Below are positions 16,631 to 63,352 of a DNA stretch of 64,000 bases, one piece after another. The notes beneath the pieces are model-generated. The model saw only the letters and a list, made by a program, of their open reading frames with translations. It did not search any database and was not told the DNA's origin. Numbering within the stretch: the first letter of the stretch is position 1; each line of letters begins with the position of its first letter. This DNA is from a virus (Duplodnaviria; Heunggongvirae; Uroviricota; Caudoviricetes): the IMG/VR virus record IMGVR_UViG_2706795377_000001, positions 52,360 through 116,359 of that record; one strand, written 5' to 3'. A program made the position numbers and the translations under genes.

Positions 16631-16650
16631 AAATACTTTATTTGGCTTTG
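16631..16650 (-). repeat. Conserved early-region element copy 1
   Basis: Plus-strand AAATACTTTATTTGGCTTTG. Lies about 5 nt upstream of the RBS of the RusA-like gene. A 10-bp inverted partner AGCCAAATAA at 16667-16676 could form a hairpin. Confidence 0.6.
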
Positions 16651-16842
16651 TTTGTAGGAGTGTAAGAGCCAAATAAGAATTAGAAGTACTCACTTGTTCA
16701 ACATAGAAACATTAGCCTTTTTTCCCTGAAATCAAATACATTAATGTAGAAACTGAAACAAATCCAAAAATAAATCCAAGCAATGCAAACGATATAATAA
16801 CGATTAATGCCTCCTTTATAAACTTCACAAAAAGACAACTCC

Positions 16843-19800
16843 TTATTTCTTTACCCTCTTCCTGTCGATGATTTGCTTCCATTCATCGAATGTTTTCAGC
16901 TTGGAAATAATTGCCTCATCCTTGTTTCGTTTTGCAAGGACAACAATCGTTTCCCCTTTATTAAGGAGGTTTTTGTACTCGCTATATTGAGTAGAATATG
17001 CTCTTACTTGAACAACTCCATATGGAGTAAGGACTTGTAATTTGGCATGTTGACCACCTCTGGAAGACTTCTTGACATCTTTGCCAATGATAGTTCCTAC
17101 AACAAGCACTTTATCTGTGCCATTCTCGTAGGTGTAAAAGTCTTTGAGATACTTCATGTAACTGTCGAATGGAGACATTGTGAGATACGTACCCATAGCT
17201 TCAAACTCGTAATACTCAATTTGACCAATGTATTTGTCAGTAAATCCATTGAGATGTTTCAACTTACGTTCCTCATCCTTCTTCAAATACTCCTTATATT
17301 TGAAGTCATTAAAGAGTTGTTTGCGTAGTTCTTTGTCCTTGTAGTCCTCATCTGTTATGATAAATCCTGCTTTAGTGAAATCAGATTTACTTGGAACAGT
17401 AGCTCTTGGCTTCCATTTCAATGGCGTATAGGTCATCTGTCCGAACTCAACAATGATTTCGTCCTTGTTACTTCCGAATGCTCCACTCTTAATAAGGTTG
17501 ATAATCGCATCTGTAGGTAACATTTCAAGTGTGGCAATCTTATTGCCTTCTGAATTTATATCTACAATTATATGATTGCTCATTTCAACCATATAATTGT
17601 AGAACTGTACAAAAGATTCGAATGGTTTTTTGTGAAACTTTCTTATATCTTCAATCAAGTCAACTGTTGGCTCACCAACGCCTTTGATTGCAAGAAGACC
17701 AAATAAAATACCAGCATCTTTTATTGTGAACTCCCCCGCCGATGTGTTGATGTTTGGAACGTCTACCTTTATTCCCATACGTTTGCATTCGCTTATGTAA
17801 TGGGATACCTCTTCGATTTTCCCAATCTTACTGTTCAGCAAGGCTGTCATAAATTCTATAGGATGGTAAACTTTCTGCTTCGCCATCTGCCATGCGATAA
17901 TCGCGTAAGCTACAGCATGGGATTTATTAAAGGAATAGGAAGCGAAGTCAATCATGATTTCCCATAAAGTATTTAGTTGCCATTCATTCCAGCCACGTTT
18001 AGATAATCCTTCAAACAATTCTTCCTTGCACTCTGTCATCAAGTCCATTTTTTTCTTGGCTGTTGCCTTACGAATTTTGTCTGGATTCTTCATGTTTGCC
18101 AGCCATGCAATCTCGATTAATTGCTCTTGAAACACTAGAATGCCATATGTTTTGGAGAGAATTGGCTCCAAGTCAGGGTGAAGATATTCAAACTCTTCTT
18201 CTCCCTTTTTACGTTTGGCATAGTGTTCGATGTGCTTCATGGACGCTGGACGAAACAGAGCGTTACACACAGCCAAGTCCTCGATACCATCAGGCACTAC
18301 CTGTCGAAGTGTTTCCTTCATGCCTACAGACTCGAACTGGAACACTCCATCTGTCTGTCCAGTTCTGAACAAAGCGAGAACCTTTTCATCATCAAAATTC
18401 AGAGTATCAGGATTGATATATTCGTAATCCTTGCCAATCATTTCAAGAGTGTCATAGATTACGTCGATTGATTTCAGACCAAGAAGGTCTACCTTAACCA
18501 ATCCAAGGTCTTCAAGGTCATCCATGTCAGCCTGATAAACGATAGAGCCATCATTAGATGCTACTGCTGTATAAAAGTCCTTGTTTTTAATGGAAACTAT
18601 CTTCCCGCAAGGGTGAACACCAAAGCTTCTTGGCAGTCCTGCAAGCTTCTCAGCATACTCGAACAGTTTTGGATATTTCTCAAACCATTCGCTGAATAAG
18701 CCAGCTTCACGAATGTACTCGATGGTCATGTTGCCGAGTTGTTGAGTGAACTGATTCGTTTCCTGATAAGGAATGTTCAACACTCGACCAACGTCTTTGA
18801 TTGCTGATTTATCCCAAATGAATCCGAACTGTCCTATAGATGCAAACTTATCTGCACCATAACGCTCAATAATAAACTCGACAACCTTCTCTCTATCCGA
18901 AGCCCCAAAATCAGAGTCAACATCAGGAACCTTCAACTCTTTACGAGTGATTTGTCCTGATTCGAGAAGTTCCAATGCGCCTACGTCAATGAAGCGCTCG
19001 AAGTATAGACCAAATTTCAACGGGTCAACGTCAGTAATTCCAAGCAACCAAGCAATCAGGCTTCCACCAGATGAACCTCGCGCAATACCTCTTCGCCTTA
19101 CGGAATTTACATAGCTGTCTACTAGTAGAAAGTATCCTTCAAAGCCCATTTTGGTAATCGCGTTAAACTCATACATTAATCTTTTGTTGTAGTATTCTTT
19201 ATTTGGTTTTTGATTGATTTTCCTACGCTTCCATCCCTGATTAATTAATACCTTTAGATAAGCCATTTCTGAGTCATATTCATCAGGAATTGGTACATGA
19301 GGAATGATAGGCTCAGACAGTGGAAGTCTTACATCACATTTGTCTGCAATGACTAGTGAATTTCTGATTGCAATCTCTCTTTCTTCTACTGAAAAAGATG
19401 TGAGTCTGTCGTATACATCTTTCGCGCTCATGATGAATGTATCTTCATAAGTTTCGCCAGCCTCCCTGTTTGTCCCAATCTGAATGAAGATGCTGTGCAA
19501 TTCATGGTCTTCATTGTCTACAAAATGAGAGTCAGTTGTAGCAACGTATTCAATTCCCAATTCGATAGCCAAGTCGATGATTGCTCGATTCAGCTTTTGC
19601 TGTCTGTAATCTCTATGTGCCTGTACTTCTAAATAGTAGTCAGCACCGAAGGTTTCCCTGTACCATTTAATAACTCTCTTAGCATTCGCTTTATTATTCT
19701 CCGTAATCTCAATGTCACCATCTCCAATTTTCCCTCCTGCCAATGCTTGTTGAACTTCACTTGCCATACAACCACTCAAGACAATTAGCCCTTCACTGTA

Positions 19801-20250
19801 CTCTTTCAAGATTTTGTGGTCAATCCTTGGTTTGAAGTAAAAGCCTTCAATGTATCCCAAAGAAGCTAATTTGTTAATGTTCTGGCGACCTTTTTCATTC
19901 TTCGCTAAGACAGTGAGGTGAAAATACTTTCTGTCTTTATCTTTCACAAATCTGTCTTCTGTGATATAGAACTCTGCACCATAGATGTGCTTTATATTTT
20001 CTTTTTTCGCAAGTTTATGAACTTTGACAGCAGAGAACACGTTTCCATGCTCTGTTACTGCTACTGCTGTTTGATTTAGAGACGCTACCTTTTTAATTAC
20101 ATCTTCTGGTTTTGACATTCCATCAAGAAGCGAATAAGCTGTGTGCAAATGCAAGTTTACAAACTTATCGTAGGATTTTGCTCCTACATGAAACTTAGAT
20201 GGATTACCACATGAATGACACAATGTTACTCCTCCTCGTTTTGTTTCCAC
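16843..20250 (-). CDS. DNA polymerase III alpha-like replicative polymerase (PHP domain, DnaE/PolC family)
   Basis: 1135 aa. N-terminal PHP motif NLHLHTAYSLLDGMSKPEDVIKKV...VAVTEHGNVF...YGAEFY, with polymerase palm/fingers-like regions further on. Confidence 0.8.
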   Translation of the reverse strand: METKRGGVTLCHSCGNPSKFHVGAKSYDKFVNLHLHTAYSLLDGMSKPEDVIKKVASLNQTAVAVTEHGNVFSAVKVHKLAKKENIKHIYGAEFYITEDRFVKDKDRKYFHLTVLAKNEKGRQNINKLASLGYIEGFYFKPRIDHKILKEYSEGLIVLSGCMASEVQQALAGGKIGDGDIEITENNKANAKRVIKWYRETFGADYYLEVQAHRDYRQQKLNRAIIDLAIELGIEYVATTDSHFVDNEDHELHSIFIQIGTNREAGETYEDTFIMSAKDVYDRLTSFSVEEREIAIRNSLVIADKCDVRLPLSEPIIPHVPIPDEYDSEMAYLKVLINQGWKRRKINQKPNKEYYNKRLMYEFNAITKMGFEGYFLLVDSYVNSVRRRGIARGSSGGSLIAWLLGITDVDPLKFGLYFERFIDVGALELLESGQITRKELKVPDVDSDFGASDREKVVEFIIERYGADKFASIGQFGFIWDKSAIKDVGRVLNIPYQETNQFTQQLGNMTIEYIREAGLFSEWFEKYPKLFEYAEKLAGLPRSFGVHPCGKIVSIKNKDFYTAVASNDGSIVYQADMDDLEDLGLVKVDLLGLKSIDVIYDTLEMIGKDYEYINPDTLNFDDEKVLALFRTGQTDGVFQFESVGMKETLRQVVPDGIEDLAVCNALFRPASMKHIEHYAKRKKGEEEFEYLHPDLEPILSKTYGILVFQEQLIEIAWLANMKNPDKIRKATAKKKMDLMTECKEELFEGLSKRGWNEWQLNTLWEIMIDFASYSFNKSHAVAYAIIAWQMAKQKVYHPIEFMTALLNSKIGKIEEVSHYISECKRMGIKVDVPNINTSAGEFTIKDAGILFGLLAIKGVGEPTVDLIEDIRKFHKKPFESFVQFYNYMVEMSNHIIVDINSEGNKIATLEMLPTDAIINLIKSGAFGSNKDEIIVEFGQMTYTPLKWKPRATVPSKSDFTKAGFIITDEDYKDKELRKQLFNDFKYKEYLKKDEERKLKHLNGFTDKYIGQIEYYEFEAMGTYLTMSPFDSYMKYLKDFYTYENGTDKVLVVGTIIGKDVKKSSRGGQHAKLQVLTPYGVVQVRAYSTQYSEYKNLLNKGETIVVLAKRNKDEAIISKLKTFDEWKQIIDRKRVKK

Positions 20251-20534
20251 TCTTTATACATCTTGATTACTTCATTTCTCGAACTGTTGTGACTACGAAG
20301 TATAAATTCCAATAGTTCGGTATCAGTAAAGTCCTCTTCTCGACAATATTTGCAACTTGTCTCCTGCGCCCATTTCGTACCTTTTGGTGTAAATCCATTA
20401 TCTTCTTTACGGAAACCTTCTGCTTTTGCACATTCATCTGAGTCCCACACATTTCCACATTCACATCCCACATGATAACCGCAATCGGGGAATGTCTCTC
20501 CACATTTGTGACACGCGTAAAAATCAACTCCCAT
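20226..20534 (-). CDS. Cys-rich zinc-ribbon hypothetical protein
   Basis: 102 aa with several CxxC/CxC pairs (CHKCGETFPDCGYHVGCECG). Confidence 0.35.
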   Translation of the reverse strand: MGVDFYACHKCGETFPDCGYHVGCECGNVWDSDECAKAEGFRKEDNGFTPKGTKWAQETSCKYCREEDFTDTELLEFILRSHNSSRNEVIKMYKEWKQNEEE

Positions 20535-20546
20535 TCAAATCTCTCC

Positions 20547-21014
20547 CTACAGTAAATTTTTGATTGTAGACTTATCAGTCCTTCTATCTTTCCTTACTCG
20601 AATATTAATCTTTCTGCAATCTATTTTTCTCTGGTTGCCATGATATAATGGCGATTCAATGCCACTTCTTAGGTAAGTAATAAAGTCGATGAGATTTACA
20701 GATAGTTTTTTGCCATTTTTATTTACTGTCGTACAGACATGACCATCGCCATGCTGTCTCCATCGAACCTCTTGGAGTAATGGAATATCCTCTGCATCGA
20801 CTATCACCTTGTAAGGTTTTTCTTCGAATTTCTTATTGTAAACTGACATTTCTGCCTCATCGCCCTTAATGACAAATCTGTTCTTCTTGTATTGGGTTGC
20901 TTGTTCCTCATCCTCTTCTAACAACATATCTCTGTGTTTTGGACACATGTAAACTTCATTAGTTGTTACATAGAAGGCACGATTTTTTACATTACATATA
21001 ACGCAACCTTTCAT
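20547..21014 (-). CDS. Hypothetical protein, possible zinc-finger/HNH-like nuclease
   Basis: 155 aa. N-terminal CVIC...CPKH cluster. Weak HNH-like C-terminal region. The call is uncertain. Confidence 0.3.
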   Translation of the reverse strand: MKGCVICNVKNRAFYVTTNEVYMCPKHRDMLLEEDEEQATQYKKNRFVIKGDEAEMSVYNKKFEEKPYKVIVDAEDIPLLQEVRWRQHGDGHVCTTVNKNGKKLSVNLIDFITYLRSGIESPLYHGNQRKIDCRKINIRVRKDRRTDKSTIKNLL

Positions 21015-21027
21015 GTTTAATCATCCC

Positions 21028-21294
21028 TTATTTTGTTTTTCCTTGAATGGACATTTCTACTGCCTTTCTGATAGCGTTAGTGAACTCTTTCCCATCTTGG
21101 AAGAAACGCCATCTACCAATATGACAGTCACCCTTCCACACTTCGAGTCGATAGGCGTATAGATGAGAGTCATCAGTAGAGCGTTTTAATGCCTCTTTTA
21201 CAACAACATCTTTATCTTCATTTTCAAAAACCACTTCTTCATAGTCTCCAAAGGTATATCTGCTCAATTTGTATACAATACTTTCTGCGCTCAT
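21028..21294 (-). CDS. Hypothetical protein
   Basis: 88 aa ORF with RBS. Confidence 0.4.
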   Translation of the reverse strand: MSAESIVYKLSRYTFGDYEEVVFENEDKDVVVKEALKRSTDDSHLYAYRLEVWKGDCHIGRWRFFQDGKEFTNAIRKAVEMSIQGKTK

Positions 21295-21303
21295 AAGACT
21301 CTC

Positions 21304-21750
21304 CTACTTCAAAATTTCAGTGACAATCTCATTGACCAGTCTATTGTCAGCTTTACCTTTAACATGTAGCATCAGAGTCTTCATTACAGTGCCTTTGTTT
21401 ACAGGTTGCTCATCGCGCTGAATGGATGCAATTGCAAGGTGGACAGTGAGCAGGATTTCATCTCTTGTCATCTGTTCTGGCAAAAACTTCTCGACAAGTT
21501 TCTCAGATGCAAGCAATTCTTCTACTTTGTCGTGATTGTTGGCTTTCTTGAATGCGTCTATTTCTTCACCTATCTGTTTCTTGAACGTTTGAAGAACTTG
21601 TGCTATCTCTTCTTCTGTTAGGTCACGCAACAGGTCTTTTTCTTTCTTCTGAATGTGGTCAATCACCAATCGGATTGTTGCCAGAGTTTGTTTGTCTTTA
21701 CTGCGCATAGCTTCCTTCATTTCATTTTGCAAACGTAGTTTTGTTTTCAA
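21304..21750 (-). CDS. GatB/YqeY-domain protein
   Basis: Start revised to TTG at 21750 (RBS AAGGAGAG at 7-nt spacing). Product MKTKLRLQNEMKEAMRSKDKQTLATIRLVIDHIQKKE...LTEEEIAQVLQ...LASEKLVEKFLPEQMT matches the YqeY architecture. Confidence 0.5.
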   Translation of the reverse strand: MKTKLRLQNEMKEAMRSKDKQTLATIRLVIDHIQKKEKDLLRDLTEEEIAQVLQTFKKQIGEEIDAFKKANNHDKVEELLASEKLVEKFLPEQMTRDEILLTVHLAIASIQRDEQPVNKGTVMKTLMLHVKGKADNRLVNEIVTEILK

Positions 21751-23770: not shown

Positions 23771-23790
23771 TAGTACTTTATTTAGCTCTT
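23771..23790 (-). repeat. Conserved element copy 2 (TTTAGCTC variant)
   Basis: Plus-strand TAGTACTTTATTTAGCTCTT. Confidence 0.55.
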
Positions 23791-23822: not shown

Positions 23823-23847
23823 AATACTTTATTTGGCTTTAGTCAAT
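23823..23847 (-). repeat. Conserved element copy 3
   Basis: Plus-strand AATACTTTATTTGGCTTTAGTCAAT. Confidence 0.6.
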
Positions 23848-29111: not shown

Positions 29112-29133
29112 AAAGTACTTTATTTGGCTTTAG
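29112..29133 (-). repeat. Conserved element copy 4
   Basis: Plus-strand AAAGTACTTTATTTGGCTTTAG. It abuts the RBS GGAGGTG. Confidence 0.6.
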
Positions 29134-29816
29134 TAAAGAGCGACTAGAGATTTGCAGATATGTTTCTTTTTCAACTTGATGTGGAACAACTTCCACCCTT
29201 CTTGTTTTAGATGAAGATTTTGTTCAGATATAAGAGCTTTAATTTCTCTCTTTCGTCTCACTCCACCTCCCCTTCCGATATGTAGAAGGCTTTCACAAGC
29301 TTTAACTGATTCTCTTACCCTGCGTTCAATGTCAAGTATTTTAGCCGTTTGCACTCTTTCTTTTTCTTCAATTCTTCTAAGATGCTTTAAGTATAATTTA
29401 ATCAGGCTATTTTTGTCAATATCTTTATGTACTTTATTTAGCTTTGGTGTTCTTGCTTTAAAATATCTGTTAACAGTAACAACTGTCTTTAAGTCGGGAG
29501 ATAGGTAAAATGCAATTTGATTATATGCATATAACACGTTAATTCGCCCCTCATACGAAATAATGCAACTAATACGTACAGCTTTAGACAACATTTCTTT
29601 GACCATTCTCGTAGCTATAACCATATCTTTCACTTTAAAATGCTGTTTCATTCTTTTATACGCATGGTTAGACAATTTAATGCCTTTGACATAGAGATTT
29701 TTCTTAATCTCTTCTTGCTTAATCATTTCAATCATTTCTTTAACATGAAGATTGTATGCCTTTTCGTTTCTAAATTGTCTTTTTACATAACGATAGTTTT
29801 CTGCGTTTTTATCCAT
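29130..29816 (-). CDS. Basic hypothetical protein
   Basis: 228 aa, rich in K and R. Confidence 0.4.
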   Translation of the reverse strand: MDKNAENYRYVKRQFRNEKAYNLHVKEMIEMIKQEEIKKNLYVKGIKLSNHAYKRMKQHFKVKDMVIATRMVKEMLSKAVRISCIISYEGRINVLYAYNQIAFYLSPDLKTVVTVNRYFKARTPKLNKVHKDIDKNSLIKLYLKHLRRIEEKERVQTAKILDIERRVRESVKACESLLHIGRGGGVRRKREIKALISEQNLHLKQEGWKLFHIKLKKKHICKSLVALY

Positions 29817-29871: not shown

Positions 29872-29897
29872 AGTACTTTATTTAGGTCTTGTCAATC
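29872..29897 (-). repeat. Conserved element copy 5 (variant)
   Basis: Plus-strand TAGTACTTTATTTAGGTCTTGTCAAT. Confidence 0.55.
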
Positions 29898-31515: not shown

Positions 31516-31566
31516 TTTCAACACTCCTTAGTTTGAAGCCCACCCACTTGTATGGATGGGCTTGAT

Positions 31567-31587
31567 AGTTATTTATTTGGCTTTACT
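31567..31587 (-). repeat. Conserved element copy 6
   Basis: Plus-strand AGTTATTTATTTGGCTTTACT. On the minus strand it is followed by a hairpin (31536-31563) and the RBS of the small ORF upstream of thyA. Confidence 0.55.
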
Positions 31588-34141: not shown

Positions 34142-34187
34142 ATTCTCCTTTATTGTATGTTTTGTTTAGGAGGGACAGTTCTCTCCT

Positions 34188-34209
34188 AAAGTACTTTATT
34201 TGGCTTTTG
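34188..34209 (-). repeat. Conserved element copy 7
   Basis: Plus-strand AAAGTACTTTATTTGGCTTTTG. Confidence 0.6.
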
Positions 34210-34211
34210 TA

Positions 34212-34937
34212 TTATTTTTTAGAAGAACCCAATGCTCCTATACCACGCTTAGAGGGAATTTCTTTCAATCGTTCGTACGAAATCTCCTTTACAACTGCTT
34301 TCGGTACGTTGATAAGTAAAAGTTGAGCAATTGCTTTGTTTGCTGGATATACAATAGCATTCTCGTCTTTGATGAGTTCTGGTGTTTTAGAAATAACTAA
34401 ACGCTTAGTGTTTTCGTTAGTGATTGCAATAAAGATTTCACCGCGATATCCAGAGTCAACCACGCCAGCACGTACAGCCATCCCTTTTGTTCCAGTGGAA
34501 CCACGCTCTTTTGCAATCAGGCTCCAATCATCAAGGACACTCGATGCAATACCAGTTGGTACTAATCGTGTTTCATGAGGTTGAATTACAAAGTCTTCAC
34601 CTTCGAAATCAGCATAAATATCGTACCCTGCATTTTCTGTTTCTTTAGTAGGGATAATTGCAGTTTCCCGTACTTTCGCAAACAAAATGGTTGTATTTCT
34701 TAGTACTTTATTGAGTTTTCGTTTGTCTCTAAAGTACGTTCTCTTATTTTTATCAATCTCCCACAGATTGACTTTAATATTTGCCCTGTCTTTTTCCTTA
34801 TCTACAATTTCAACAATTGCTTCATAGATGTTCTGGTCAGGCTTTATACTTAATTCTTTAATTGTGCCAAGAGTTTTCTCGCTTTTTACCCAAACTACTT
34901 CTCCAATTTTGTAATAACGCTTTTCTGTACGCTTCAT
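34212..34937 (-). CDS. dut: dUTPase with N-terminal extension
   Basis: 241 aa. Motifs AGYDIYA and GVVDSGYRGEIFIAITN match dUTPase motifs I and III. Confidence 0.75.
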   Translation of the reverse strand: MKRTEKRYYKIGEVVWVKSEKTLGTIKELSIKPDQNIYEAIVEIVDKEKDRANIKVNLWEIDKNKRTYFRDKRKLNKVLRNTTILFAKVRETAIIPTKETENAGYDIYADFEGEDFVIQPHETRLVPTGIASSVLDDWSLIAKERGSTGTKGMAVRAGVVDSGYRGEIFIAITNENTKRLVISKTPELIKDENAIVYPANKAIAQLLLINVPKAVVKEISYERLKEIPSKRGIGALGSSKK

Positions 34938-35512: not shown

Positions 35513-35533
35513 CTGTATTTTATTTGGCTCTTG
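35513..35533 (-). repeat. Conserved element copy 8 (variant)
   Basis: Plus-strand CTGTATTTTATTTGGCTCTTG. Directly abuts RBS GTGAGGAA. Confidence 0.5.
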
Positions 35534-35590: not shown

Positions 35591-35614
35591 AGTCAATACT
35601 TTATTTGGCTTTGG
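35591..35614 (-). repeat. Conserved element copy 9
   Basis: Plus-strand AGTCAATACTTTATTTGGCTTTGG. Confidence 0.6.
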
Positions 35615-37164: not shown

Positions 37165-37183
37165 CTCCTTTATTTGGCTCTAG
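37165..37183 (-). repeat. Conserved element copy 10 (3' half replaced by RBS)
   Basis: Plus-strand CTCCTTTATTTGGCTCTAG. The minus-strand reading AGAGCCAAATAAAGGAG supplies the ligase RBS. Confidence 0.5.
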
Positions 37184-38876: not shown

Positions 38877-38971
38877 CTCCCATCATCAATAAAACACTTC
38901 TTTCATTTAGAAAATAACATAGGACTTTATTAAGTTTTTGTTGGTGTTTAAAAATCGGATTTAACGATTTT

Positions 38972-39937: not shown

Positions 39938-39958
39938 CACTACTTTATTTGGCTTTCG
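39938..39958 (-). repeat. Conserved element copy 11
   Basis: Plus-strand CACTACTTTATTTGGCTTTCG. Confidence 0.55.
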
Positions 39959-40764: not shown

Positions 40765-40790
40765 TAGTACTTTATTTAGCTCCTGTCAAT
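40765..40790 (-). repeat. Conserved element copy 12 (variant), in divergent promoter region
   Basis: Plus-strand TAGTACTTTATTTAGCTCCTGTCAAT. Lies 85 nt upstream of the first leftward gene and about 160 nt from the RNPP-receptor gene start. Confidence 0.55.
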
Positions 40791-40951: not shown

Positions 40952-42244
40952 ATGGCTGAAAGTTTAACTTTCACATCATTGGGGGAACTGGTAAAAGGAA
41001 AACGAATAAATTTAGGTCTAAGCCTATCGGAACTATCTAGGAAAACTGGGGTTAGTAAAGGGATACTATCTAAGATTGAATCAGGTGAAACAAAACGCCC
41101 TGAACTAAGGAACCTTAAATTAATTGCAGATGGGTTACAGATTCCTTATGACGATGTAGTTGAGCTTTATATAGAGATTGAACATAGAATGAGCATTTTT
41201 GAGGATTTTCTTTGGGAAGCGATTGCCGTTTCTAGTCCCTCTTTGATTGAAAAAGTGGCTAGTAAGTTCCTTGAAGATTCTAAAAAAGATACCTTCGAAT
41301 CATTAGAAAGTATCTTTGTGATTGCAAATACTATTAAAAACAATGATGCTAGATTAGCACTTTACAATACTATAATTAAATATGCGAGAATACACGGTAT
41401 ACCAATGTATATAGCTAAAGGGTTATATCAAAAATATCTGATTGACAGACAGGATTTAAAACGGATGGACAAATCTTTTAAAGATGGTGAAGAAATCCTC
41501 CATTATGTCGATTTTTTATCTCATGAAGATAAAGTTACATACTACTACAAGATTTCATTACAGGCATATGCTCTAAAATACTACGATTCATGCATAACAT
41601 TAGGGAAAAAAGGGCATGAGGAAGATTGTACAGTAAACGAATTGAAAGAGCGTGTTGCTTTAGCAATTTGTAATTCTTATTTACTTTTAAAAGATTACAC
41701 TACTTTGGAAGAACACCTCTCGTTGTATGAGAATTTGAACTACACTTTCATAATTGAGCGTGTTCAATATTATCGCGCTCTTATACTTTCAAAAACAGGA
41801 AATTATGAAGAAGCACTCCCTTTACTTTGGAGATGTTTCGAAGAAGTTACAGATTACCAAAGATTGCACAGAGCTAACATGTTACTAGAAGCACTGTTTG
41901 AGATTAATGATTCTGATTCTATTCGGAGAATTATAGAATCAGAAGAGAAGAAGTTTTTAATTTTAGAAAATGAACCATTCCAGTGTTTAGAATTAGGTAA
42001 ATACTATAGGTTCAAAGGGACTTACCTTGTTAAAAATGAATCATTTGATTTAGGAATGGAGGCTTATCTTAGTAGCATTTATCACTATGGGAAAATAAAT
42101 GCTTATAAAGAAATTACGGAATGTTCAAGAGACATTTATTTTTATCATAGTTCGATGAAAAAAAACATAAGCTTTGATATGTCATCTAAATTGGAAAAAT
42201 TGTATAATTTATCTAATGACATTATAGAAAGAGGTGATAAGTAA
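40952..42244 (+). CDS. RNPP-family quorum-sensing receptor (N-terminal XRE-type HTH + TPR-like domain; AimR/NprR-like)
   Basis: 430 aa. RBS AGGAAGGGGA. HTH LGLSLSELSRKTGVSKGILSKIESGETKRPELRNLKLIADGL, followed by about 370 aa of helical-repeat sequence. Its stop overlaps the ATG of a signal-peptide ORF (TAATG). Confidence 0.6.
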   Translation: MAESLTFTSLGELVKGKRINLGLSLSELSRKTGVSKGILSKIESGETKRPELRNLKLIADGLQIPYDDVVELYIEIEHRMSIFEDFLWEAIAVSSPSLIEKVASKFLEDSKKDTFESLESIFVIANTIKNNDARLALYNTIIKYARIHGIPMYIAKGLYQKYLIDRQDLKRMDKSFKDGEEILHYVDFLSHEDKVTYYYKISLQAYALKYYDSCITLGKKGHEEDCTVNELKERVALAICNSYLLLKDYTTLEEHLSLYENLNYTFIIERVQYYRALILSKTGNYEEALPLLWRCFEEVTDYQRLHRANMLLEALFEINDSDSIRRIIESEEKKFLILENEPFQCLELGKYYRFKGTYLVKNESFDLGMEAYLSSIYHYGKINAYKEITECSRDIYFYHSSMKKNISFDMSSKLEKLYNLSNDIIERGDK

Positions 42245-42390
42245 TGAAAAGAATTTTTTGGGGCGTATCGGTATTTTTAACAATGTTTTCTTTCTCTCTT
42301 CTAGCATTAGAAAATGATAAAACAGAACACTCCACAAATAAAATTCAGCATTACGCAATAACTGTATATACTGATAATCCCGGTTATTAA
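42244..42390 (+). CDS. Secreted pro-peptide (48 aa), candidate signalling peptide cognate to the RNPP receptor
   Basis: Not in the ORF track. ATG at 42244 overlaps the receptor stop by 1 nt. RBS AGAGGTGA at 7-nt spacing. Encodes MKRIFWGVSVFLTMFSFSLLALENDKTEHSTNKIQHYAITVYTDNPGY. The arrangement matches AimP, Phr, NprX and PapR pro-peptides. Confidence 0.5.
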   Translation: MKRIFWGVSVFLTMFSFSLLALENDKTEHSTNKIQHYAITVYTDNPGY

Positions 42391-42409
42391 TCAATGAATA
42401 TTACTTTTA

Positions 42410-42437
42410 AAGAACGCTATTGTAGCGTTCTTTTTTT
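42410..42437 (+). terminator. Rho-independent terminator after the peptide gene
   Basis: AAGAACGCTA ttg TAGCGTTCTT followed by TTTTT. A second, weaker hairpin with a T7 run sits at 42474-42496. Confidence 0.65.
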
Positions 42438-42561
42438 ATGGAAAATTTATAATTCTTTGTCGAAATTTGAAGAACGTTTCATGTTCACGTTTTTTTAAGG
42501 CGAACATGCATCTTTTGGTAAAATAATACATAAGAGGAAGGAGGTGCTTATTTATTAGTGT

Positions 42562-42846
42562 ATGTTTTTCAATGATAAGAGGTGTTCCCACTGTCTCCAA
42601 ACTTACGGGAACACCTCCTCCTTAAGTAACCCTTTTGTTACTCAAACTCATTTTACCACTCACCTACAGAATGTGAAAACAGAAAATTCTCAACAGAGAA
42701 ATGATTTACAGAAGCTTATAGAACTCCTCCGTAAAGAATTAGAGATGTTGTATTACAAAGAAGGTTCATTTGTACACCCAACCGTACTACAAATGAGCCA
42801 ACAACTAGATGAGTACATCGTTATGTTTGAGAAGATTAAACACTAG
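42562..42846 (+). CDS. Spo0E-like sporulation regulatory phosphatase family protein (start uncertain)
   Basis: C-terminal 55 aa NDLQKLIELLRKELEMLYYKEGSFVHPTVLQMSQQLDEYIVMFEKIKH fit the Spo0E-family pattern, including the SQxLD signature. The ATG at 42562 lies 21 nt from the nearest SD, which is unusually far. The in-frame GTG at 42673 would give a 58-aa product. A strong hairpin lies within the 5' region at 42579-42618. Confidence 0.5.
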   Translation: MFFNDKRCSHCLQTYGNTSSLSNPFVTQTHFTTHLQNVKTENSQQRNDLQKLIELLRKELEMLYYKEGSFVHPTVLQMSQQLDEYIVMFEKIKH

Positions 42847-44950: not shown

Positions 44951-45009
44951 CAAAAACACTCCTTTATTTGTTTGTTTAAACGAATGAGAAGGTCTATTGA
45001 CCCTCTCGT

Positions 45010-51846: not shown

Positions 51847-51861
51847 TACTTTATTAAGCTT

Positions 51862-52380
51862 TTAAACTGTGACATGTTTCCATCTTTTCCCTCTCTTGAT
51901 GAGAGAAACATGTTTATGAGATATGCCAAATATGTTCGCCACATCAATGTTCTTTACTCCATTTTTTAGAAGTGTTTTTATTTGTTTCACAACATCTTCA
52001 TCAAGAATCGCCATTGAGTTTTTGCTTCCCAAATTAGAATCAAGACCTAATCTAAACTTGTGTTTTTGATTTTCCTCTACAGTGACAAGTTCAAGATTGT
52101 CTTTCCTATTGTCTGTCTTGATGCCATTCTTGTGATTTACGTCAAGCTCTTCTGATAAACTATCTAATCCATAATAGACAGCATATAGTAATCTGTGTTG
52201 ATAAGCTATATATCTCTTTCTATTGACTGTGACTCCTATTTGCAGATATCCTGTTTTATGTTTTGCGTTTGCTTTCTTCCCGTTTGAATAGTGTATAACT
52301 CCACTTTCTTCATCCACAATTAGGTTGCCATTTTTGATAGCTTCGATAAAATGAACTAACTTGCTATCATTCGGTTTCAC
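51862..52380 (-). CDS. HNH homing endonuclease with C-terminal HTH DNA-binding module
   Basis: 172 aa. GYLQIGV...HRLLY...VNHKNGIKTDNRKDNLELVT is an HNH_3 signature. It is inserted between the helicase and primase genes. Confidence 0.65.
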   Translation of the reverse strand: MKPNDSKLVHFIEAIKNGNLIVDEESGVIHYSNGKKANAKHKTGYLQIGVTVNRKRYIAYQHRLLYAVYYGLDSLSEELDVNHKNGIKTDNRKDNLELVTVEENQKHKFRLGLDSNLGSKNSMAILDEDVVKQIKTLLKNGVKNIDVANIFGISHKHVSLIKRGKRWKHVTV

Positions 52381-54631: not shown

Positions 54632-54653
54632 TTAATACTTTATTTGGCTTTTG
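54632..54653 (-). repeat. Conserved element copy 13
   Basis: Plus-strand TTAATACTTTATTTGGCTTTTG. Abuts RBS AAGGAGAG. Confidence 0.6.
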
Positions 54654-55220: not shown

Positions 55221-55247
55221 AGTCAATACTTTATTTGGCTTTAGTAG
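55221..55247 (-). repeat. Conserved element copy 14
   Basis: Plus-strand AGTCAATACTTTATTTGGCTTTAGTAG. Lies upstream of gmk. Confidence 0.6.
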
Positions 55248-58051: not shown

Positions 58052-58270
58052 TTAGACAATTCGGAAATACTTATGAAAGCATTCATCATTTTCCCAATCT
58101 TTATTCTTTCTTTCAGCAATTATGCGACTAACACCTTGCTCGTCTTGCACTACTAACTTTGTACCATCAATTTCAAATGCTGAATATCTAGCATTTTCGA
58201 TAAAATATACTACTCCATCCACTTCTACCTGTTTAATGCAACGAATATCCATTTTATCCCTACTTCCCAC
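58052..58270 (-). CDS. Hypothetical protein
   Basis: 72 aa ORF. Confidence 0.3.
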   Translation of the reverse strand: MGSRDKMDIRCIKQVEVDGVVYFIENARYSAFEIDGTKLVVQDEQGVSRIIAERKNKDWENDECFHKYFRIV

Positions 58271-58463
58271 TCCACATATCTAATGCAGATTTCTTTATAT
58301 AGTATTTTTCTCCACCATATAGATAGACACTTGCTAATACTTCACCGTTTTCATCTCTCCAAACAACACTATCTGCAACAGTTACTACATGTGAATGAAA
58401 TCCAGAAATATTGTCATAAGCCCAATTTAAAAACATACTATGAATATCTTTAGCTACTTCCAC
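58260..58463 (-). CDS. Hypothetical protein
   Basis: 67 aa ORF. An AT-rich perfect palindrome lies upstream. Confidence 0.3.
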   Translation of the reverse strand: MEVAKDIHSMFLNWAYDNISGFHSHVVTVADSVVWRDENGEVLASVYLYGGEKYYIKKSALDMWSGK

Positions 58464-58501
58464 ACTCTCATCCCTTCTACAAAAAACAAAATATAATCCA
58501 T

Positions 58502-58549
58502 TTTAAATGTAAAAATACATGTATTTATATATGCATTTTTACATTTAAA
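58502..58549. repeat. Perfect AT-rich inverted repeat (15-bp arms, 18-bp spacer)
   Basis: TTTAAATGTAAAAAT-acatgtatttatatatgc-ATTTTTACATTTAAA. Lies in the intergenic/promoter region upstream of the gene at 58260-58463. Confidence 0.55.
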
Positions 58550-58777
58550 TATATTTGCACTTACACATGTATTGTCAACCTGAAATATTTCCATCAGTTG
58601 TGGGCAATACAACAAAATTCATTAACAATGATTACTTACTCGCTTTGCTTCATATCCTGCAAACCACGATTCAATTTCTTCTTTGATTGATTGTTCGACC
58701 TCTTTTTTCATGTTATATACCTCTTTATGGTTTATTGTTTAAACTAGTTGAATAGAAAAGCGTCATCTTTTAGAATT

Positions 58778-59059
58778 TCATTCAGATTGTTCAATCTCAA
58801 AAGCATCTAAAATGCTAGGCAATTGATTGAATGAACTACTTGTTGTTTCACCTGTCTCAATATTCCTTACAGCAATGTAGGTTGCATATGACCCTCTGTT
58901 CCTGCCAGCATATTTGACAGGAACAGACATTTCAATTTTACTTCCTACTTTAAGATTCTCGAACATCTTAGCTTTAGTCTTACGATTGATTTTCGTAATT
59001 TTAAGGATGTTACTACGCAACACAATGGAATCTTTATTTTCCATATTCATCAATCCCAT
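58778..59059 (-). CDS. Hypothetical protein
   Basis: 93 aa ORF. Confidence 0.35.
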   Translation of the reverse strand: MGLMNMENKDSIVLRSNILKITKINRKTKAKMFENLKVGSKIEMSVPVKYAGRNRGSYATYIAVRNIETGETTSSSFNQLPSILDAFEIEQSE

Positions 59060-61080
59060 CTGTCGATTTTGATAATTCGTGTGGAGTTATTTGCAGTTAC
59101 TTTTACAACCAAGTTCCATTCGCTGTCTCTGGAATAGCCCACACCGCAAGCTGTCGCTTGTTCAACGCCCTCAATTGGAGTGTTCGCTGTGTACGCTTCC
59201 AGAGTCTTGCGAATCTCACGAAGTTCTGGCTTCAGAGTTTCAACAAAGAATCCTCGACCTTTTCCTTCTGATTTATCTTTGGCTCCTTCAAGCAGGAAGA
59301 AGATGTGATGCCCTACATGAGTAGATTTTTCTTCACCCCACAGATTAGGAGAGTTTGTAATACCTTTTACCTTCACAAAGTTGTTCACTGGAATCGCCCA
59401 AGCATCATCAGATGTATAGCTTGTGCTAGTGATATTTGGTGCTTGACCTTTGATGTAATCGAATGTGAATACGACAACCTTCTGTTTGTCTCGCAAAGCA
59501 TCACTGAATGTATAGATTTTTCCTGCAACTTCCAGTTCAACCTTGAATGGTGTAATGTCATTTCCTCGTTCAGCAAAGTTGTGAACAAAGAACTGATAGC
59601 GTCCTTGTCGTGCTTGACCATTAGCCCAACGAATGTTTTCTACAGGATACATGGTTGTTCCACTTCCAGCATTCGCATCAACGTCAAGCCATCCTCCGCA
59701 ACGACTACGCTTATGTGTGTAATCAATGCTTTCTCCACTTGGAGCAATTGCATGAAGGTCAAGGTCAGTGTAGCTTTCCCAAATCAGAGAGCAACGAATT
59801 TCGTTATTCTCATATTGTCCTCCTGCATCCTCAACTCTACGCTTAATTTCTCCATCAATCCCACCATGATAGTACCAAGAGAAAGTGTTGTCCCATTGCA
59901 GAATGTTAGGAGCATCTTCATCAGAAGCAGTGACTAATGCCATTAGTCGATTAGGATTATCAACCATTACCTCAATGCTTTCTGCTGTTGGCAGTACAGT
60001 TCGGGAGAACTTGTCCCAAGTCATTACTGTAGTAGGTAGATTCATGATGTTGCTATGAACAGTTTGCTTTTCTTTAGGCGTAATGTTGCCAAACACTCCA
60101 CCAGACTTCTTTACTTCCTCCTTGACAGTCTTTTTGCCCTGCCAGATGAATTGAGGAATTTCTTCATATGTCGCATATCTACGCTTCAAGGATTCAGAAA
60201 ACCCAAGCTTCTCAACAATTTTTTCAGCTTGTTGAATATTGCCTTGCGTTGGTGCAGATTGCGCTCTCATGTAGTTGGATGGATTCATTTTCTCTGCAAA
60301 TCTACGCGAGATTACATCAATAGAATATCCACTCACGATATCATCAAGTAATGTACCAATCATGCTACTCTTGATATGGCAAAAGCCAGATGGTGCAGTG
60401 GCTACAGCCAACCAAGTGATATTATCTCGCTTTCTACTATTTTTGGCATTTATACGTTTGTTGTGTAGTTCCTGAACAAATTTGGCAACACCAAGCACTC
60501 TGTCAGAGCGATAAAGTGTTTCAGATTCCAGAAGTGTTACAGCTTGATTTACAGCTTCAAGTGGATACTCTATAAGTCCAGAAACCAGAATCCGAAAATC
60601 TTCTTTCTTTTCTGCCATTTCCTGTCCAGCAGTTTTCAGCATGGAACGATGAACTTTTTCTGTTGGGAGTGTTACTGACATATGTTCCCACCCACCAAAA
60701 GTAGGTGTACCAAGAACTCTTTCACTCGAAACAAATACTCCTTTTACTCTCGAAGCAAGCACAATTTTCTTCATTGCTTTAACAGCTTTAAGGAAGAATT
60801 TTGGAGTTTCTTCTTCGTCCCACAAAACTGAACTTAATTCGCCATTCTCGAAAATCGAAACTAGACCACCAAAACGCTCTACAAAATTTTTGCAACATCT
60901 GCAAGTATAGTGTTGTCGTGCATTTTCTGGCAAATTTTCAAGGAAGATTTCGAACAGATTTTCTGCATCTGTTGTGAAGAGAGGTTTATCATTAAAGCTT
61001 GCAAATCTTTCCTTGATTGCTTCGCTAAATTGTGGATAGTTATCGTTATGGCTGTCAATTGTTGTGTAGATGTTTGTCAT
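59050..61080 (-). CDS. Large hypothetical protein (676 aa)
   Basis: Long intact ORF. N-terminal CRCC motif. No confident domain assignment. Confidence 0.45.
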   Translation of the reverse strand: MTNIYTTIDSHNDNYPQFSEAIKERFASFNDKPLFTTDAENLFEIFLENLPENARQHYTCRCCKNFVERFGGLVSIFENGELSSVLWDEEETPKFFLKAVKAMKKIVLASRVKGVFVSSERVLGTPTFGGWEHMSVTLPTEKVHRSMLKTAGQEMAEKKEDFRILVSGLIEYPLEAVNQAVTLLESETLYRSDRVLGVAKFVQELHNKRINAKNSRKRDNITWLAVATAPSGFCHIKSSMIGTLLDDIVSGYSIDVISRRFAEKMNPSNYMRAQSAPTQGNIQQAEKIVEKLGFSESLKRRYATYEEIPQFIWQGKKTVKEEVKKSGGVFGNITPKEKQTVHSNIMNLPTTVMTWDKFSRTVLPTAESIEVMVDNPNRLMALVTASDEDAPNILQWDNTFSWYYHGGIDGEIKRRVEDAGGQYENNEIRCSLIWESYTDLDLHAIAPSGESIDYTHKRSRCGGWLDVDANAGSGTTMYPVENIRWANGQARQGRYQFFVHNFAERGNDITPFKVELEVAGKIYTFSDALRDKQKVVVFTFDYIKGQAPNITSTSYTSDDAWAIPVNNFVKVKGITNSPNLWGEEKSTHVGHHIFFLLEGAKDKSEGKGRGFFVETLKPELREIRKTLEAYTANTPIEGVEQATACGVGYSRDSEWNLVVKVTANNSTRIIKIDRWD

Positions 61081-61245
61081 TAGAAATACACTCTCCTTTT
61101 AATGTTTGCATATTCTCAAAGTGTTACATAATTTCCTTGTAGCCCTTTCTCTGCCATCTAAATCAATATGTGTAGGGAACAATTTTTGCACGTTGCCAAA
61201 CTGGTGAATGGTTTAAATCTGACTTGACACTCTTACTAATTGGAA

Positions 61246-61467
61246 CTACTTTTTGGTTGTAGGCAAGCATTCTAAGCACTCCTTCATAGAAGAGAAAGTA
61301 AAGGAAAGAAATGATATCGCCAAGCAGATTAATAACCATATGATACTTGAATTAGGAAGTATATAATTATTAAATGCTACCTCATAAGCATAGTAAATGC
61401 TATGTCCTGAAAGGATTAAAGTTAACAGACTATAAATGATATTAAAATAAAATTTCCCCACAAACAA
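61246..61467 (-). CDS. Small membrane protein
   Basis: 73 aa with two TM helices. Confidence 0.3.
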   Translation of the reverse strand: MFVGKFYFNIIYSLLTLILSGHSIYYAYEVAFNNYILPNSSIIWLLICLAISFLSFTFSSMKECLECLPTTKK

Positions 61468-61476
61468 AACCTCCTA

Positions 61477-61761
61477 TCATCTAATAAATTCAGCTAATTT
61501 AGCTTGGAGTTTTTTATTCATTTCCATTTCATCGAATGCTTTATCGCGATTACGTTCAATTTCAATAGCCTTCTGAGTTTCTTCATCAATCACCTGTTGA
61601 AGCTGATTATTGATATCTTCCAATTCATCATGGGTCTTCTTAAATGATTCTAACAAACCAACTGCTTGCTCACTTAATACTTGTACTTTCATGTCATTTG
61701 TCATTTTTGAAAGCTTTGCCCTTTTTGCCAACCCTTTTATACGCTTCAACAATTCAACCAT
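61477..61761 (-). CDS. Coiled-coil hypothetical protein
   Basis: 94 aa ORF. Confidence 0.35.
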   Translation of the reverse strand: MVELLKRIKGLAKRAKLSKMTNDMKVQVLSEQAVGLLESFKKTHDELEDINNQLQQVIDEETQKAIEIERNRDKAFDEMEMNKKLQAKLAEFIR

Positions 61762-61765
61762 CTCC

Positions 61766-62104
61766 CTATTTTTGTTGGATTTTTTTTATAATACCAAGAT
61801 GTTTAAATTCTGCTTTGATGATGTTCGCTTTATGCGTCACTGTGTCATCATAGTGCTTTTTTACTTTGTCGCTAATCTTATGGTATGGCGTTTCTGTGTC
61901 TCGCCATACTGTCAGTACAAGACCTGTTTTGCTAATCAAAAGATTAATGTCTTGGTAGCGTATAATGTAATCACCAGATGCATAGATATGTGACATCTTA
62001 CCCATTGAGATTGCTCTATAGATTTTGTATGTAGTACGTCTAATACCTTCTTTTTTATTGCAAATCTGATTCCATTGTCCAATTGCTACGCCACTAATTT
62101 TCAT
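61766..62104 (-). CDS. Hypothetical protein
   Basis: 112 aa. RBS GGAGGA. Preceded by a 5' hairpin and the conserved element. Confidence 0.35.
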   Translation of the reverse strand: MKISGVAIGQWNQICNKKEGIRRTTYKIYRAISMGKMSHIYASGDYIIRYQDINLLISKTGLVLTVWRDTETPYHKISDKVKKHYDDTVTHKANIIKAEFKHLGIIKKIQQK

Positions 62105-62150
62105 GTTTTTATTCCTCCACTTCGTACTGTAGGAGAGGGAAAGTCCCCTA

Positions 62151-62171
62151 CAGTACTTTATTTGGCTTTAT
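62151..62171 (-). repeat. Conserved element copy 15
   Basis: Plus-strand CAGTACTTTATTTGGCTTTAT. It overlaps a 10-bp-stem hairpin (62124-62156) that precedes RBS GGAGGA. Confidence 0.6.
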
Positions 62172-63250
62172 ATAAGGATTTGGTTGCAGATAGCTACACC
62201 TTTTTCAAACTGCTCGATTTCAGTGTACTTCTTGTAGTTGATAGAACCAACTTTCGATTTTAGTTCCACTTTCAATTGTTTCTTCTGGTCTTCGTTCATT
62301 TTGCCAATCAATGCATCTAATTGAGCAATATAATCATCAGGAGTCTTCTCAGGATTACCAGCCTCTTCTTGAACATAGTCCTGAGCCTTTTCTTCACGTT
62401 CCTGTTCTTGCGTTTGCTTTGCGGTATCTACAGCTTTCTCATCGCCATCGTAGGCTTCCAAAACGGCTTTTTCAAACGTTTCCAAGAACAAATCAACATC
62501 ATACTCGATTTTGTTCGGAACATTCTCAAATCGGCTTCCTGCTTCGATATCGCCATCACTACGGAAATGAATATAACGATTCTCGTTTACCAAACCATTA
62601 ACCACTTCCTTGTCGATAGAAATGTAGATGATAAAGTCGGACATGTTGACGAACAAATTCCGCGCACGTTCTGGAAGAGTCACAGTTGTCTTGTCGTAGG
62701 ATTGACCATTTTTCAGTTCAATTTTTTTCTCTTTATCATGTGTAATCATAAATAGACCGTACCCTGCATTCACCAGACGTTTAATTTGCTTATCGACTTC
62801 TTCTTCTACCATTACGTGACCTTGACCCCAAGGCACATCATTAATAGCTTTAATCTTTGCGTCCTTACGTGCAATACGTTCACGTTTGATGATATATTCT
62901 GTAGCATATTTGTACATGTAGTCCAGAGTATCAAATGCAATAAATTTGTAAGAGACTTTCCCACGATTTTCAACCAACTGACCTACAACCTCTTGGAACT
63001 GTTCCCAAGCACCGCGCTTTTCTTCGGGATTTTCACTTGGTACTGCAACAGCATGAATACCACGCAACGCCTTAAACCCTTTTTCAAAGCCAATTAGTAA
63101 CGCCTTATCCAGCCCACCAATGTAATCTGTTTGTGCAAGTTTGTAGAACAATGTTGTTTTCCCTGCTTTGCCTACTCCGTAGACCAAAAAGATGTAGTCG
63201 AACAGGATTGCTCTTGGTTGGTTAGGCTGGATATTAAGTACGTTAATCAT
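62168..63250 (-). CDS. AAA-family ATPase (RecA-fold, Sak4/AAA_24-like)
   Basis: Walker A VYGVGKAGKTTLFYKL. ORF-track start is GTG 63256. The ATG at 63250 is preferred. Confidence 0.55.
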   Translation of the reverse strand: MINVLNIQPNQPRAILFDYIFLVYGVGKAGKTTLFYKLAQTDYIGGLDKALLIGFEKGFKALRGIHAVAVPSENPEEKRGAWEQFQEVVGQLVENRGKVSYKFIAFDTLDYMYKYATEYIIKRERIARKDAKIKAINDVPWGQGHVMVEEEVDKQIKRLVNAGYGLFMITHDKEKKIELKNGQSYDKTTVTLPERARNLFVNMSDFIIYISIDKEVVNGLVNENRYIHFRSDGDIEAGSRFENVPNKIEYDVDLFLETFEKAVLEAYDGDEKAVDTAKQTQEQEREEKAQDYVQEEAGNPEKTPDDYIAQLDALIGKMNEDQKKQLKVELKSKVGSINYKKYTEIEQFEKGVAICNQILI

Positions 63251-63330
63251 TTTCACATTACCCCTTTGGTTTCAATTTTTAATTGAAGTACCAGAGGGGA
63301 AAGCAAGACATCCTTATCTCCCTTCCCCTC

Positions 63331-63352
63331 AAAGTACTTTATTTGGCTTTAG
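63331..63352 (-). repeat. Conserved element copy 16
   Basis: Plus-strand AAAGTACTTTATTTGGCTTTAG. On the minus strand it is followed by a hairpin (63295-63330, stem GAGGGGAAG/CTTCCCCTC) and then the RBS of the AAA ATPase gene. Confidence 0.6.

Follow-up and report, generated by a model that had tools for sequence, protein, structure and literature searches.

A repeated 16-base element in the genome of Brevibacillus phage Sundance as a probable operator of an MrpR/SroF-family repressor

What function could be served by a short element which recurs, in a single orientation, ahead of the leftward early genes of a large tailed phage? This question is raised by a 64,000-nucleotide stretch of DNA (positions 52,360 to 116,359 of the IMG/VR record IMGVR_UViG_2706795377_000001; hereafter, the window), which is 100% identical to Brevibacillus phage Sundance (NC_028749.1), whose linear genome of 134,270 bp is bounded by 323-bp terminal repeats. 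A sequence-only reading of the window had likened the element to SPBRE, the repeated element of phage SPbeta, and proposed it to be an operator of a master repressor. The whole annotated 134-kb genome, including its parts beyond the window, was scanned in the present analysis, and the proposal is supported by the repressor homolog gp157, by the anatomy shared with SPbeta and phi3T and by five relatives of the phage. By analogy with these systems and judging by the sequence of gp157, the element is probably the operator of this predicted master repressor. Element coordinates are window positions unless the record is stated (record position = window position + 52359).

The repeat itself is confirmed as real. 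Its conserved, asymmetric 16-base core, AAAGCCAAATAAAGTA (the inner core is denoted CAAATAAAGTA), is present in the window in ten exact copies, all of them on the minus strand, and the 20-mer given by the sequence-only reading yields 12 matches at <=3 mismatches vs. 0.04 expected; in an unbiased count of 12-mers, the element ranks first among the over-represented words of the genome. A position weight matrix (PWM) built from 23 copies and applied at a threshold of >=18 bits revealed 33 sites in the 134 kb, 20 of them within the window; in 20 Markov-simulated genomes serving as the null, the per-strand maximum score averaged 10.7 bits and never exceeded 15.4 bits. All 16 copies initially listed as good ones were recovered, displaced by 2-6 nt (the starts had included the variable 3' flank). 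Three further copies had been proposed as degenerate: that at 51847 is a good one (18.4 bits), but that at 38923 is weak (13.4 bits) and that at 44958 is noise-like (4 mismatches, <8 bits).

The element is not equally frequent on both strands or inside genes: 26 of the 33 sites are intergenic in a genome that is 90% coding (binomial P = 7e-21 at 9.6% non-coding), and 31 of the 33 are co-oriented with the local genes (P = 7e-8). Outside the window, plus-strand copies precede the plus-strand left-arm genes gp009, gp012, gp013, and gp014; hence, the orientation tracks transcription, not one fixed strand of the DNA. A pair of copies also precedes gp043 in the tail region, so the supposed absence of the element from rightward units holds within the window but not across the genome. 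The only two strong copies running against the local gene direction, record 523-538 (+) and 133841-133856 (+), sit just inside each terminal repeat, and leftward transcripts crossing them would bear the complement of the element.

In the PWM, the information is concentrated in positions 1-16, which lack dyad symmetry; conservation is weaker at AC two bases upstream and at YT just downstream, so that the element spans ~20-22 bp in total. The 10-bp palindrome AAAGTACTTT, initially regarded as part of the consensus, is incidental: it occurs no more than four times in the window, thrice within element copies; positions 19-20 show no conservation; and only AGTACT is partly palindromic. The flanking GTCAAT noted earlier is indeed present, but it is the complement of ATTGAC, i.e., of the -35 hexamer TTGAC(A/T).

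Eleven of the 33 sites adjoin a promoter (score, 8-12 of 12) in one of two fixed registers, with no promoter at the other 22. In class A, the element constitutes the 17 nt between the two hexamers of a strong sigma-A promoter, TTGAC(A/T) standing directly before position 1 and TATAAT at positions 18-23; apart from the window copies listed below, this class includes record copies 523, 8544, and 10959 and register-shifted variants at record 6082 and 116964. In class B, the element abuts the -35 hexamer on its upstream side (AAAGTA/TTGACT-N17-TATAAT; here and below, a slash marks a junction). Class C lacks a promoter: here, the element occupies the interval from a stop codon to the Shine-Dalgarno sequence (SD) of the next gene, finishing, in the eight window copies, 3-8 nt ahead of the SD, and the start codon is 8-21 nt away. 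In class D, a strong hairpin (-10 to -30 kcal/mol) with a stem starting in the GTAC of the element follows it directly. The copies in the window, together with one degenerate copy, are as follows (CDS, coding sequence).

16634..16649, minus strand: class C, fused to the SD; exact 16-mer, 26.5 bits; 15 nt before the start of gp068 (RusA).
19195..19210, minus strand: weaker copy within the DNA polymerase CDS (gp070), of doubtful function; 19.9 bits, 2 mismatches.
23774..23789, minus strand: class C, leader copy and downstream partner of a pair; 27.4 bits; 21 nt before the start of gp080 and 51 bp downstream of 23825.
23825..23840, minus strand: class A, spacer of TTGACT-N17-TATAAT; exact, 30.1 bits; promoter 11/12, its -35 hexamer abutting element position 1.
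29116..29131, minus strand: class C, overlapping the gp095 stop; exact, 32.3 bits; GGAGG 4 nt downstream.
29430..29445, minus strand: in the gp095 CDS, 10 nt upstream of TTGACA-N18-TATACT; 28.0 bits, 1 mismatch; promoter 11/12.
29874..29889, minus strand: class A, spacer of TTGACA-N17-TATAAT upstream of gp095; 27.3 bits; promoter 12/12.
31569..31584, minus strand: class D, 1 nt past the gp099 stop, followed by a hairpin and then the gp098 SD; 19.6 bits; fold -20.7 kcal/mol.
34192..34207, minus strand: class D, 4 nt past the gp106 (Dut) stop, the hairpin sequestering SD-like TTTAGGAG; exact, 32.6 bits; fold -10.0 kcal/mol.
34704..34719, minus strand: weak copy within the Dut CDS (gp106), of doubtful function; 18.2 bits, 3 mismatches.
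35516..35531, minus strand: class C, leader copy and downstream partner of a pair; 25.9 bits; 20 nt before the start of gp107 and 81 bp downstream of 35597.
35597..35612, minus strand: class B, abutting the -35 hexamer of TTGACT-N17-TATTAT, which starts at element position 17; exact, 29.6 bits; promoter 10/12.
37166..37181, minus strand: class C, overlapping the gp110 stop, its 3' end doubling as the SD (AAAGGAG); 24.3 bits; 13 nt before the start of DNA ligase (gp109).
38923..38938, minus strand: degenerate copy upstream of gp115; 13.4 bits, above the null mean maximum (10.7) and below the null extreme (15.4).
39941..39956, minus strand: class C, 11 nt before the start of gp118; exact, 28.4 bits.
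40768..40783, minus strand: class A, spacer of TTGACA-N17-TATAAT at the head of a leftward operon (gp119); 27.1 bits; promoter 12/12.
51847..51862, minus strand: class C, overlapping the gp134 stop, 12 nt before the start of primase (gp133); 18.4 bits.
54636..54651, minus strand: class C, 16 nt before the start of gp136; exact, 30.5 bits.
55227..55242, minus strand: class B, abutting the -35 hexamer of TTGACT-N17-TATAAT, overlapping the stop of a PcfJ-like gene, upstream of gp137; exact, 30.1 bits; promoter 11/12.
62154..62169, minus strand: class D, overlapping the Sak4 (gp152) stop, the hairpin stem beginning with the GTAC of the element; exact, 29.1 bits; fold -20.4 kcal/mol.
63335..63350, minus strand: class D, at the YorF-like/Sak4 junction, with a long hairpin after it; exact, 32.3 bits; fold -29.8 kcal/mol.

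Thus, the adjacency to an SD, which had been ascribed to every copy, holds for 8 of the 20 window copies; 6 others are promoter-linked, 4 are separated from the gene by a hairpin, and four, 29430 included, lie within CDSs. For the promoter- or hairpin-separated copies the start codon is 49-101 nt away, save 29430, which is not upstream of a gene. The pairs, noted earlier as lying about 50-80 bp apart, consist of a promoter copy and, 37-81 bp downstream of it, another one in the leader (window 23825/23774 and 35597/35516; record 116964/116883 and 46609/46646). The promoter at 55227 is the best promoter-like site in 54-64 kb, and the 29430 copy with its promoter (window 29390-29445) suggests either an internal promoter or a mis-drawn boundary of gp095. 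Scanning with a sigma-70 consensus was uninformative, the count of promoter-like matches being that expected from shuffled sequence, and so was a terminator consensus, which left the class D hairpins uncalled. When these hairpins (62100-62169, 63270-63350, 34150-34207, and 31520-31584) are read on the plus strand, the complement of the element, TTTATTTGGCTTT, directly follows them, and the assembly looks like an intrinsic terminator facing antisense transcription. Pairing of the element with the 3' end of the 16S rRNA was rejected, the register being wrong as judged by eye.

A different explanation would make the element a promoter or activator box specific to the phage and serving a middle or delayed-early class of genes, at which a phage factor (the 'sigma factor' gp013 or a MotA-like activator) redirects the host RNA polymerase. 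The copies do lie upstream of, and co-oriented with, replication and nucleotide-metabolism genes, a sigma factor is annotated in this phage, and the presence of another repeated promoter-like element over the right arm (see below) suggests temporal classes of transcription. Still, this explanation is very unlikely: the promoter-less copies display no -10-like hexamer in any fixed register, a transcription start at these copies would remove the SD, and the element takes two different registers against good sigma-A hexamers. Moreover, no sigma domain could be detected in gp013, nothing similar to the RNA polymerase YonO was found, and gp012 is a RecD2-like helicase. Both alternatives named by the sequence-only reading, i.e., a promoter for a phage-encoded RNA polymerase or sigma factor and an RNA element of the 5' untranslated region (UTR), are disfavoured, with some probability left to them at the promoter-less copies; the latter is considered below.

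The operator reading has a candidate protein. The gene gp157 (YP_009194207.1; record 118759-119727, i.e., would-be window 66400-67368) is located outside the window, 2.4 kb to the right of it, and is annotated as "integrase" in Sundance. Its product matches both Pfam domains of the MrpR family, MrpR_N_CB (PF22822; 82.6 bits) and MrpR_C_cat (PF22823; 50.1 bits; the cutoff is 27 for each), and has no match to Pfam Phage_integrase at E < 0.01. It is 28% identical to YopR/MrpR of SPbeta over the full length (E = 1e-27), and its relatives in the PDB are only MrpR/YopR (8a0a, 8bj6, 8bjv) and 9rd5 (E about 1e-26). The place of Y304 of MrpR is taken by F in gp157 and four relatives, and by V in phi3T; with F in this position, gp157 is not expected to be a recombinase. 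As predicted from its sequence, gp157 is a full-length repressor of the MrpR/SroF family devoid of the nucleophile tyrosine.

The residues T22/L25/Y26, with which the CB domain of phi3T SroF reads the central base pairs of the DNA (the numbering is possibly off by one relative to the paper), correspond to T/V/Y in gp157 and its relatives. At MrpR position 136, which is mutated in the temperature-sensitive c2 allele of SPbeta, gp157 has G. The SPBc2 reference (NC_001884; locus L063, 31280-32257) has E in this position and all the other aligned homologues have G; E at residue 136 is the temperature-sensitive c2 allele according to Kohm et al. (PMC10516654). In the paper describing the Sundance genome (PMC4909266), gp157, taken for an integrase, served as an argument that the phage is temperate, and a MEME motif of phages Jenst and SecTim467 was reported to be "not found in" Sundance. 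Lysogeny is independently supported by a 99%-identical copy of gp157, with conserved neighbours, in a 371-kb contig of Brevibacillus laterosporus (GCA_024742055.1).

The surroundings of gp157 resemble those of MrpR only in part. A sroA-F-type operon (yopMNOPQR) beside arbitrium is not seen here, the likeness being positional only: a ~450-amino-acid protein is encoded just upstream of the repressor gene. No YopP-like integrase adjoins gp157, and gp154 and gp156 have zero Pfam matches. The quorum-sensing module gp120-gp122, ~24 kb away from gp157, is of the RRNPP-Spo0E type. It comprises (window 40952-42846) a 430-amino-acid helix-turn-helix (HTH) receptor, a 48-amino-acid open reading frame, and a Spo0E-family phosphatase, and is divergent from the 40768 promoter. 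In a preprint, Sundance is listed with a quorum-sensing system predicted to hijack sporulation.

How does this set of sites compare with boxes that are known to be bound as DNA? Re-derived from the SPbeta genome, SPBRE reads (TAGAC)AAATACAAAWAATATGTA(TATAAT). At yonP, yorE, yorZ, and yosX, it is a promoter spacer (TAGACA-N17-TATAAT); yonX and yosX each have a pair of copies with a distance of 64-68 bp between them; and the copies of yopM, yopV, yonX, and yosL are SD-fused. SPBRE is invariably co-oriented with the genes. SPBRE reportedly goes back to Lazarevic 1999, and the SroF boxes of phi3T are said to have been first defined by Brady et al. 2023 (Cell Host Microbe). According to Kohm et al. 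(Nucleic Acids Research 2023, PMC10516654), the positions of SPBRE match the MrpR peaks seen by chromatin affinity purification sequencing (ChAP-seq), and both PaimR and PyosX are bound and repressed by MrpR.

Sundance and SPbeta have homologous repressors, which share the integrase fold and the two MrpR Pfam domains. The phages also have in common an asymmetric A-rich box with a C-AAA(T/A)AA...GTA core, and the full series of spacer copies, promoter-plus-leader pairs, SD-fused copies, and gene co-orientation. Some locations also agree: a copy follows the DNA polymerase gene (yorL/yorM in SPbeta, 16634 in Sundance), one SPbeta copy precedes yorE-yorF-yorG as Sundance copies surround the YorF-like gene and Sak4 (62154, 63335, record 116883, and 116964), and a copy stands, in synteny, ahead of the first gene of the operon that diverges from the quorum-sensing receptor gene (in Sundance, gp120, opposite the 40768 promoter). 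At the same time, the boxes differ, AAAGCCAAATAAAGTA in Sundance vs. AAATACAAAWAATATGTATA in SPbeta, with a register shift of 1 nt; there are ~33 sites vs. ~13, far more of them between cistrons; and the host of Sundance belongs to a different genus, Brevibacillus. The Sundance repressor gene follows that of a GmrSD_N protein, not of DndB-like YopQ, and an RRNPP receptor with Spo0E takes the place of the arbitrium aimR-aimP-aimX, which in SPbeta lies beside the repressor operon.

The likeness to phi3T is of the same kind: a long asymmetric operator with two A-tracts in dense copies, the monomeric clamp reading being seen in phi3T. The crystallised phi3T box reads, in gene sense, AAGAATAAAAATAAAATTACTA; ~18 copies are found in 41 kb, the good matches (<=6 mismatches) being all co-oriented with the genes. 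Many of them abut the -35 hexamer (...TTACTA/TTGACG, cf. ...AAAGTA/TTGACT in Sundance), a register shared by the 35597 copy, and several are SD-fused. The CB-domain reading residues, T..(L/V)Y, are likewise shared, whereas those of the CAT domain differ, and no Sar-like antirepressor or LexA box was identified in Sundance. Hence, every Sundance class bar the hairpin class has a counterpart at boxes known to be DNA-bound. Phage P1 offers a functional analogy only: its C1 repressor has dispersed asymmetric 17-bp operators over a large genome, mostly overlapping promoters, so that one repressor serves an asymmetric operator at many scattered sites, but the protein family is unrelated. As revealed by the SroF-DNA structure of phi3T (Chmielowska et al., bioRxiv 10.1101/2025.11.27.690993), a monomer nearly encircles the helix and reads 24 of the 26 bp of an asymmetric two-A-tract box, which has many sites in the genome. 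Neither this preprint nor PMC10516654 mentions Brevibacillus or Paenibacillus.

Homologues of gp157 that are 49-68% identical occur on 130-140-kb contigs, and one in B. laterosporus is 99% identical. Five relatives, four metagenomic ones from Paenibacillus-type sources and the B. laterosporus prophage (locus L073), were compared over a ~20-kb neighbourhood each. The gene order GmrSD_N - MrpR - YorF - Sak4 is kept in all five neighbourhoods, and the element of the relatives, AATGCYAAATAAAGTA, is always co-oriented. The shared junctions are those before YorF, at YorF/Sak4, after Sak4, after PcfJ, and at helicase/primase; the YorF/Sak4 junction carries the element in all five relatives, L068 has a copy at helicase/primase, and L065 has one after PcfJ. 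The relatives were reached via a homologous-protein search: a contig search with gp157 alone gave no confirmed relative, and an exact 16-mer scan of IMG/VR gave 58 contigs with a single match each, i.e., the chance level, and no relatives. In Geobacillus E3, Psychrobacillus Perkons, and Tsamsa, a de novo motif search near the repressor gene, made with simple k-mer methods on very AT-rich genomes, revealed no clean repeated box.

Another possibility is that the element acts in RNA, e.g., as an intercistronic or 5'-UTR target of a phage RNA-binding protein, nuclease, or antisense RNA (similar to T4 RegA/RegB), controlling translation or processing of early polycistronic mRNAs. Such a function would suit an orientation that follows transcription at 31 of the 33 sites, the eight window copies ending 3-8 nt before the SD, and the four copies whose hairpins start in GTAC and are conserved in the relatives with changed stems: the element after Sak4 is retained with its hairpin in L065, L066, and L073, the stem sequences being altered. 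However, at a given junction the 16-mer is constant and the hairpin optional: in L068, the element is joined straight to the SD at a junction that bears a hairpin in Sundance. In addition, at least eight copies are situated in promoter spacers, upstream of the predicted transcript start, and the SD-fused SPbeta sites (yopM, yopV, and yonX) are bound by MrpR as DNA in vivo. A search of Rfam with the window returned zero family matches, and no candidate for an RNA-binding partner was identified. An RNA element is, therefore, judged quite improbable. As a separate observation, a block of leader sequence (...GCAGTMGGWTGGGGCTAYYAAAT...) upstream of the YorF-like gene, after the second copy of the element, is common to Sundance (record about 116830-116900) and three relatives (L065, about 9000-9070; L067, about 12800-12870; L068, about 9350-9418), and may be a structured leader.

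Could the element be the operator of another regulator? Such a regulator might be gp155, an HTH protein of the Cro/CI type whose gene lies beside gp157 and diverges from it, or else gp009 or gp004. Of the four metagenomic relatives, three have a divergent HTH gene after the MrpR gene, as does the host prophage, and the promoter of gp009 bears a copy of the element itself. On the other side, a long site without a dyad is atypical of dimeric HTH repressors and matches the published monomeric clamp with the integrase fold, and the anatomy of the sites parallels that of the validated MrpR/SroF boxes, which renders these candidates highly improbable.

With gp157 as the probable repressor, a mechanism can be outlined from the literature on phi3T SroF: by analogy, one gp157 monomer would clamp each asymmetric A-tract box. 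At class A and B sites, the bound repressor would occlude RNA polymerase; here, the register is seen directly and the occlusion is presumed from it. At intercistronic and leader sites, the encircling clamp might block read-through, acting as a roadblock or a "second lock", which is the weakest step of the scheme. In the lysogen, the replication and nucleotide-metabolism module (record 68-117 kb) would be held off, as would the left-arm regulators, i.e., gp009, the RecD2-like helicase gp012, the 'sigma' gp013, and the HU-like gp014. Most likely, the Sundance operator represents the same kind of system as that of SPbeta and phi3T, i.e., known biology and no new mechanism. As an operator, the element has not been previously reported for Sundance or its Paenibacillus and Brevibacillus relatives.

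Several points weigh against the assignment to gp157. The first is that about 60% of the sites have no recognisable promoter and are found between cistrons, in transcribed DNA, their spacing from the SD being narrowly constrained; a function at the RNA level would equally explain these SD-adjacent copies, and strict co-orientation is not obviously needed for a pure roadblock. The second is the box itself. It resembles SPBRE only modestly, the observed PWM score being reached by 6 of 300 column shuffles; the comparison with the published SPBRE bears out the anatomy but much less so the sequence. With the phi3T box, there is no significant similarity (62/300); for the two validated boxes, SPBRE and that of phi3T, the figure is 13/300. 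Weak likeness of the boxes fits repressor-specific boxes, yet sequence similarity alone proves little. The DNA-reading residues in the CAT domain of gp157 are unlike those of phi3T as well, as expected for a different box. Finally, the sro operon is not conserved by sequence (gp158, a GmrSD_N protein, vs. YopQ, a DndB protein, E = 0.55), and there is no LexA box near the candidate antirepressor (gp154-156), the sole GAAC-N4-GTTC of the genome lying inside gp158.

In the roadblock scheme, the strict co-orientation of the promoter-less copies could be explained only by their descent from promoter copies or by a polar roadblock. It is conceivable, although unlikely, that these copies form a distinct layer of control, being either orientation-dependent elongation roadblocks, at which the monomeric clamp silences long operons cistron by cistron, or a dual DNA/RNA element whose complement also provides the U-tract of terminators against antisense transcription. 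If true, such a layer would be a mode of prophage silencing described neither for MrpR/SroF nor for any other repressor of phages.

Contrary to the initial suggestion, part of the leftward regulon is left uncovered by the element: in the right arm (record 121-134 kb), another repeat is used instead. This second, unrelated repeat, ~18 copies of which are located at record 121587-132880 as well as at record 46 and 133993 (in the terminal repeats), has a single orientation and precedes the small leftward genes gp159-gp194, nearly always in intergenic DNA. Its gene-strand sequence is GCGTGTGWTTTT-N10-T-TACATTAATATA-TGAAGG, and it looks like a distinct class of promoter without a TTGACA-type -35 hexamer. 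It fills an arm nearly devoid of AAAGCCAAATAAAGTA and is conserved in the B. laterosporus prophage L073.

Overall, the assignment of the element to gp157 would extend the integrase-fold monomeric MrpR/SroF-SPBRE system beyond the Bacillus SPbeta-like arbitrium phages, to Brevibacillus and Paenibacillus phages and prophages of roughly 130-140 kb with a different quorum-sensing module. It would also correct the annotation of Sundance, whose 'integrase', cited in favour of the temperate lifestyle, appears to be a repressor, and it provides a map of its regulon with ~33 putative sites. The question of roadblocking by a clamp repressor, raised here by Sundance, applies equally to SPbeta and phi3T, in which the same SD-fused copies are found.

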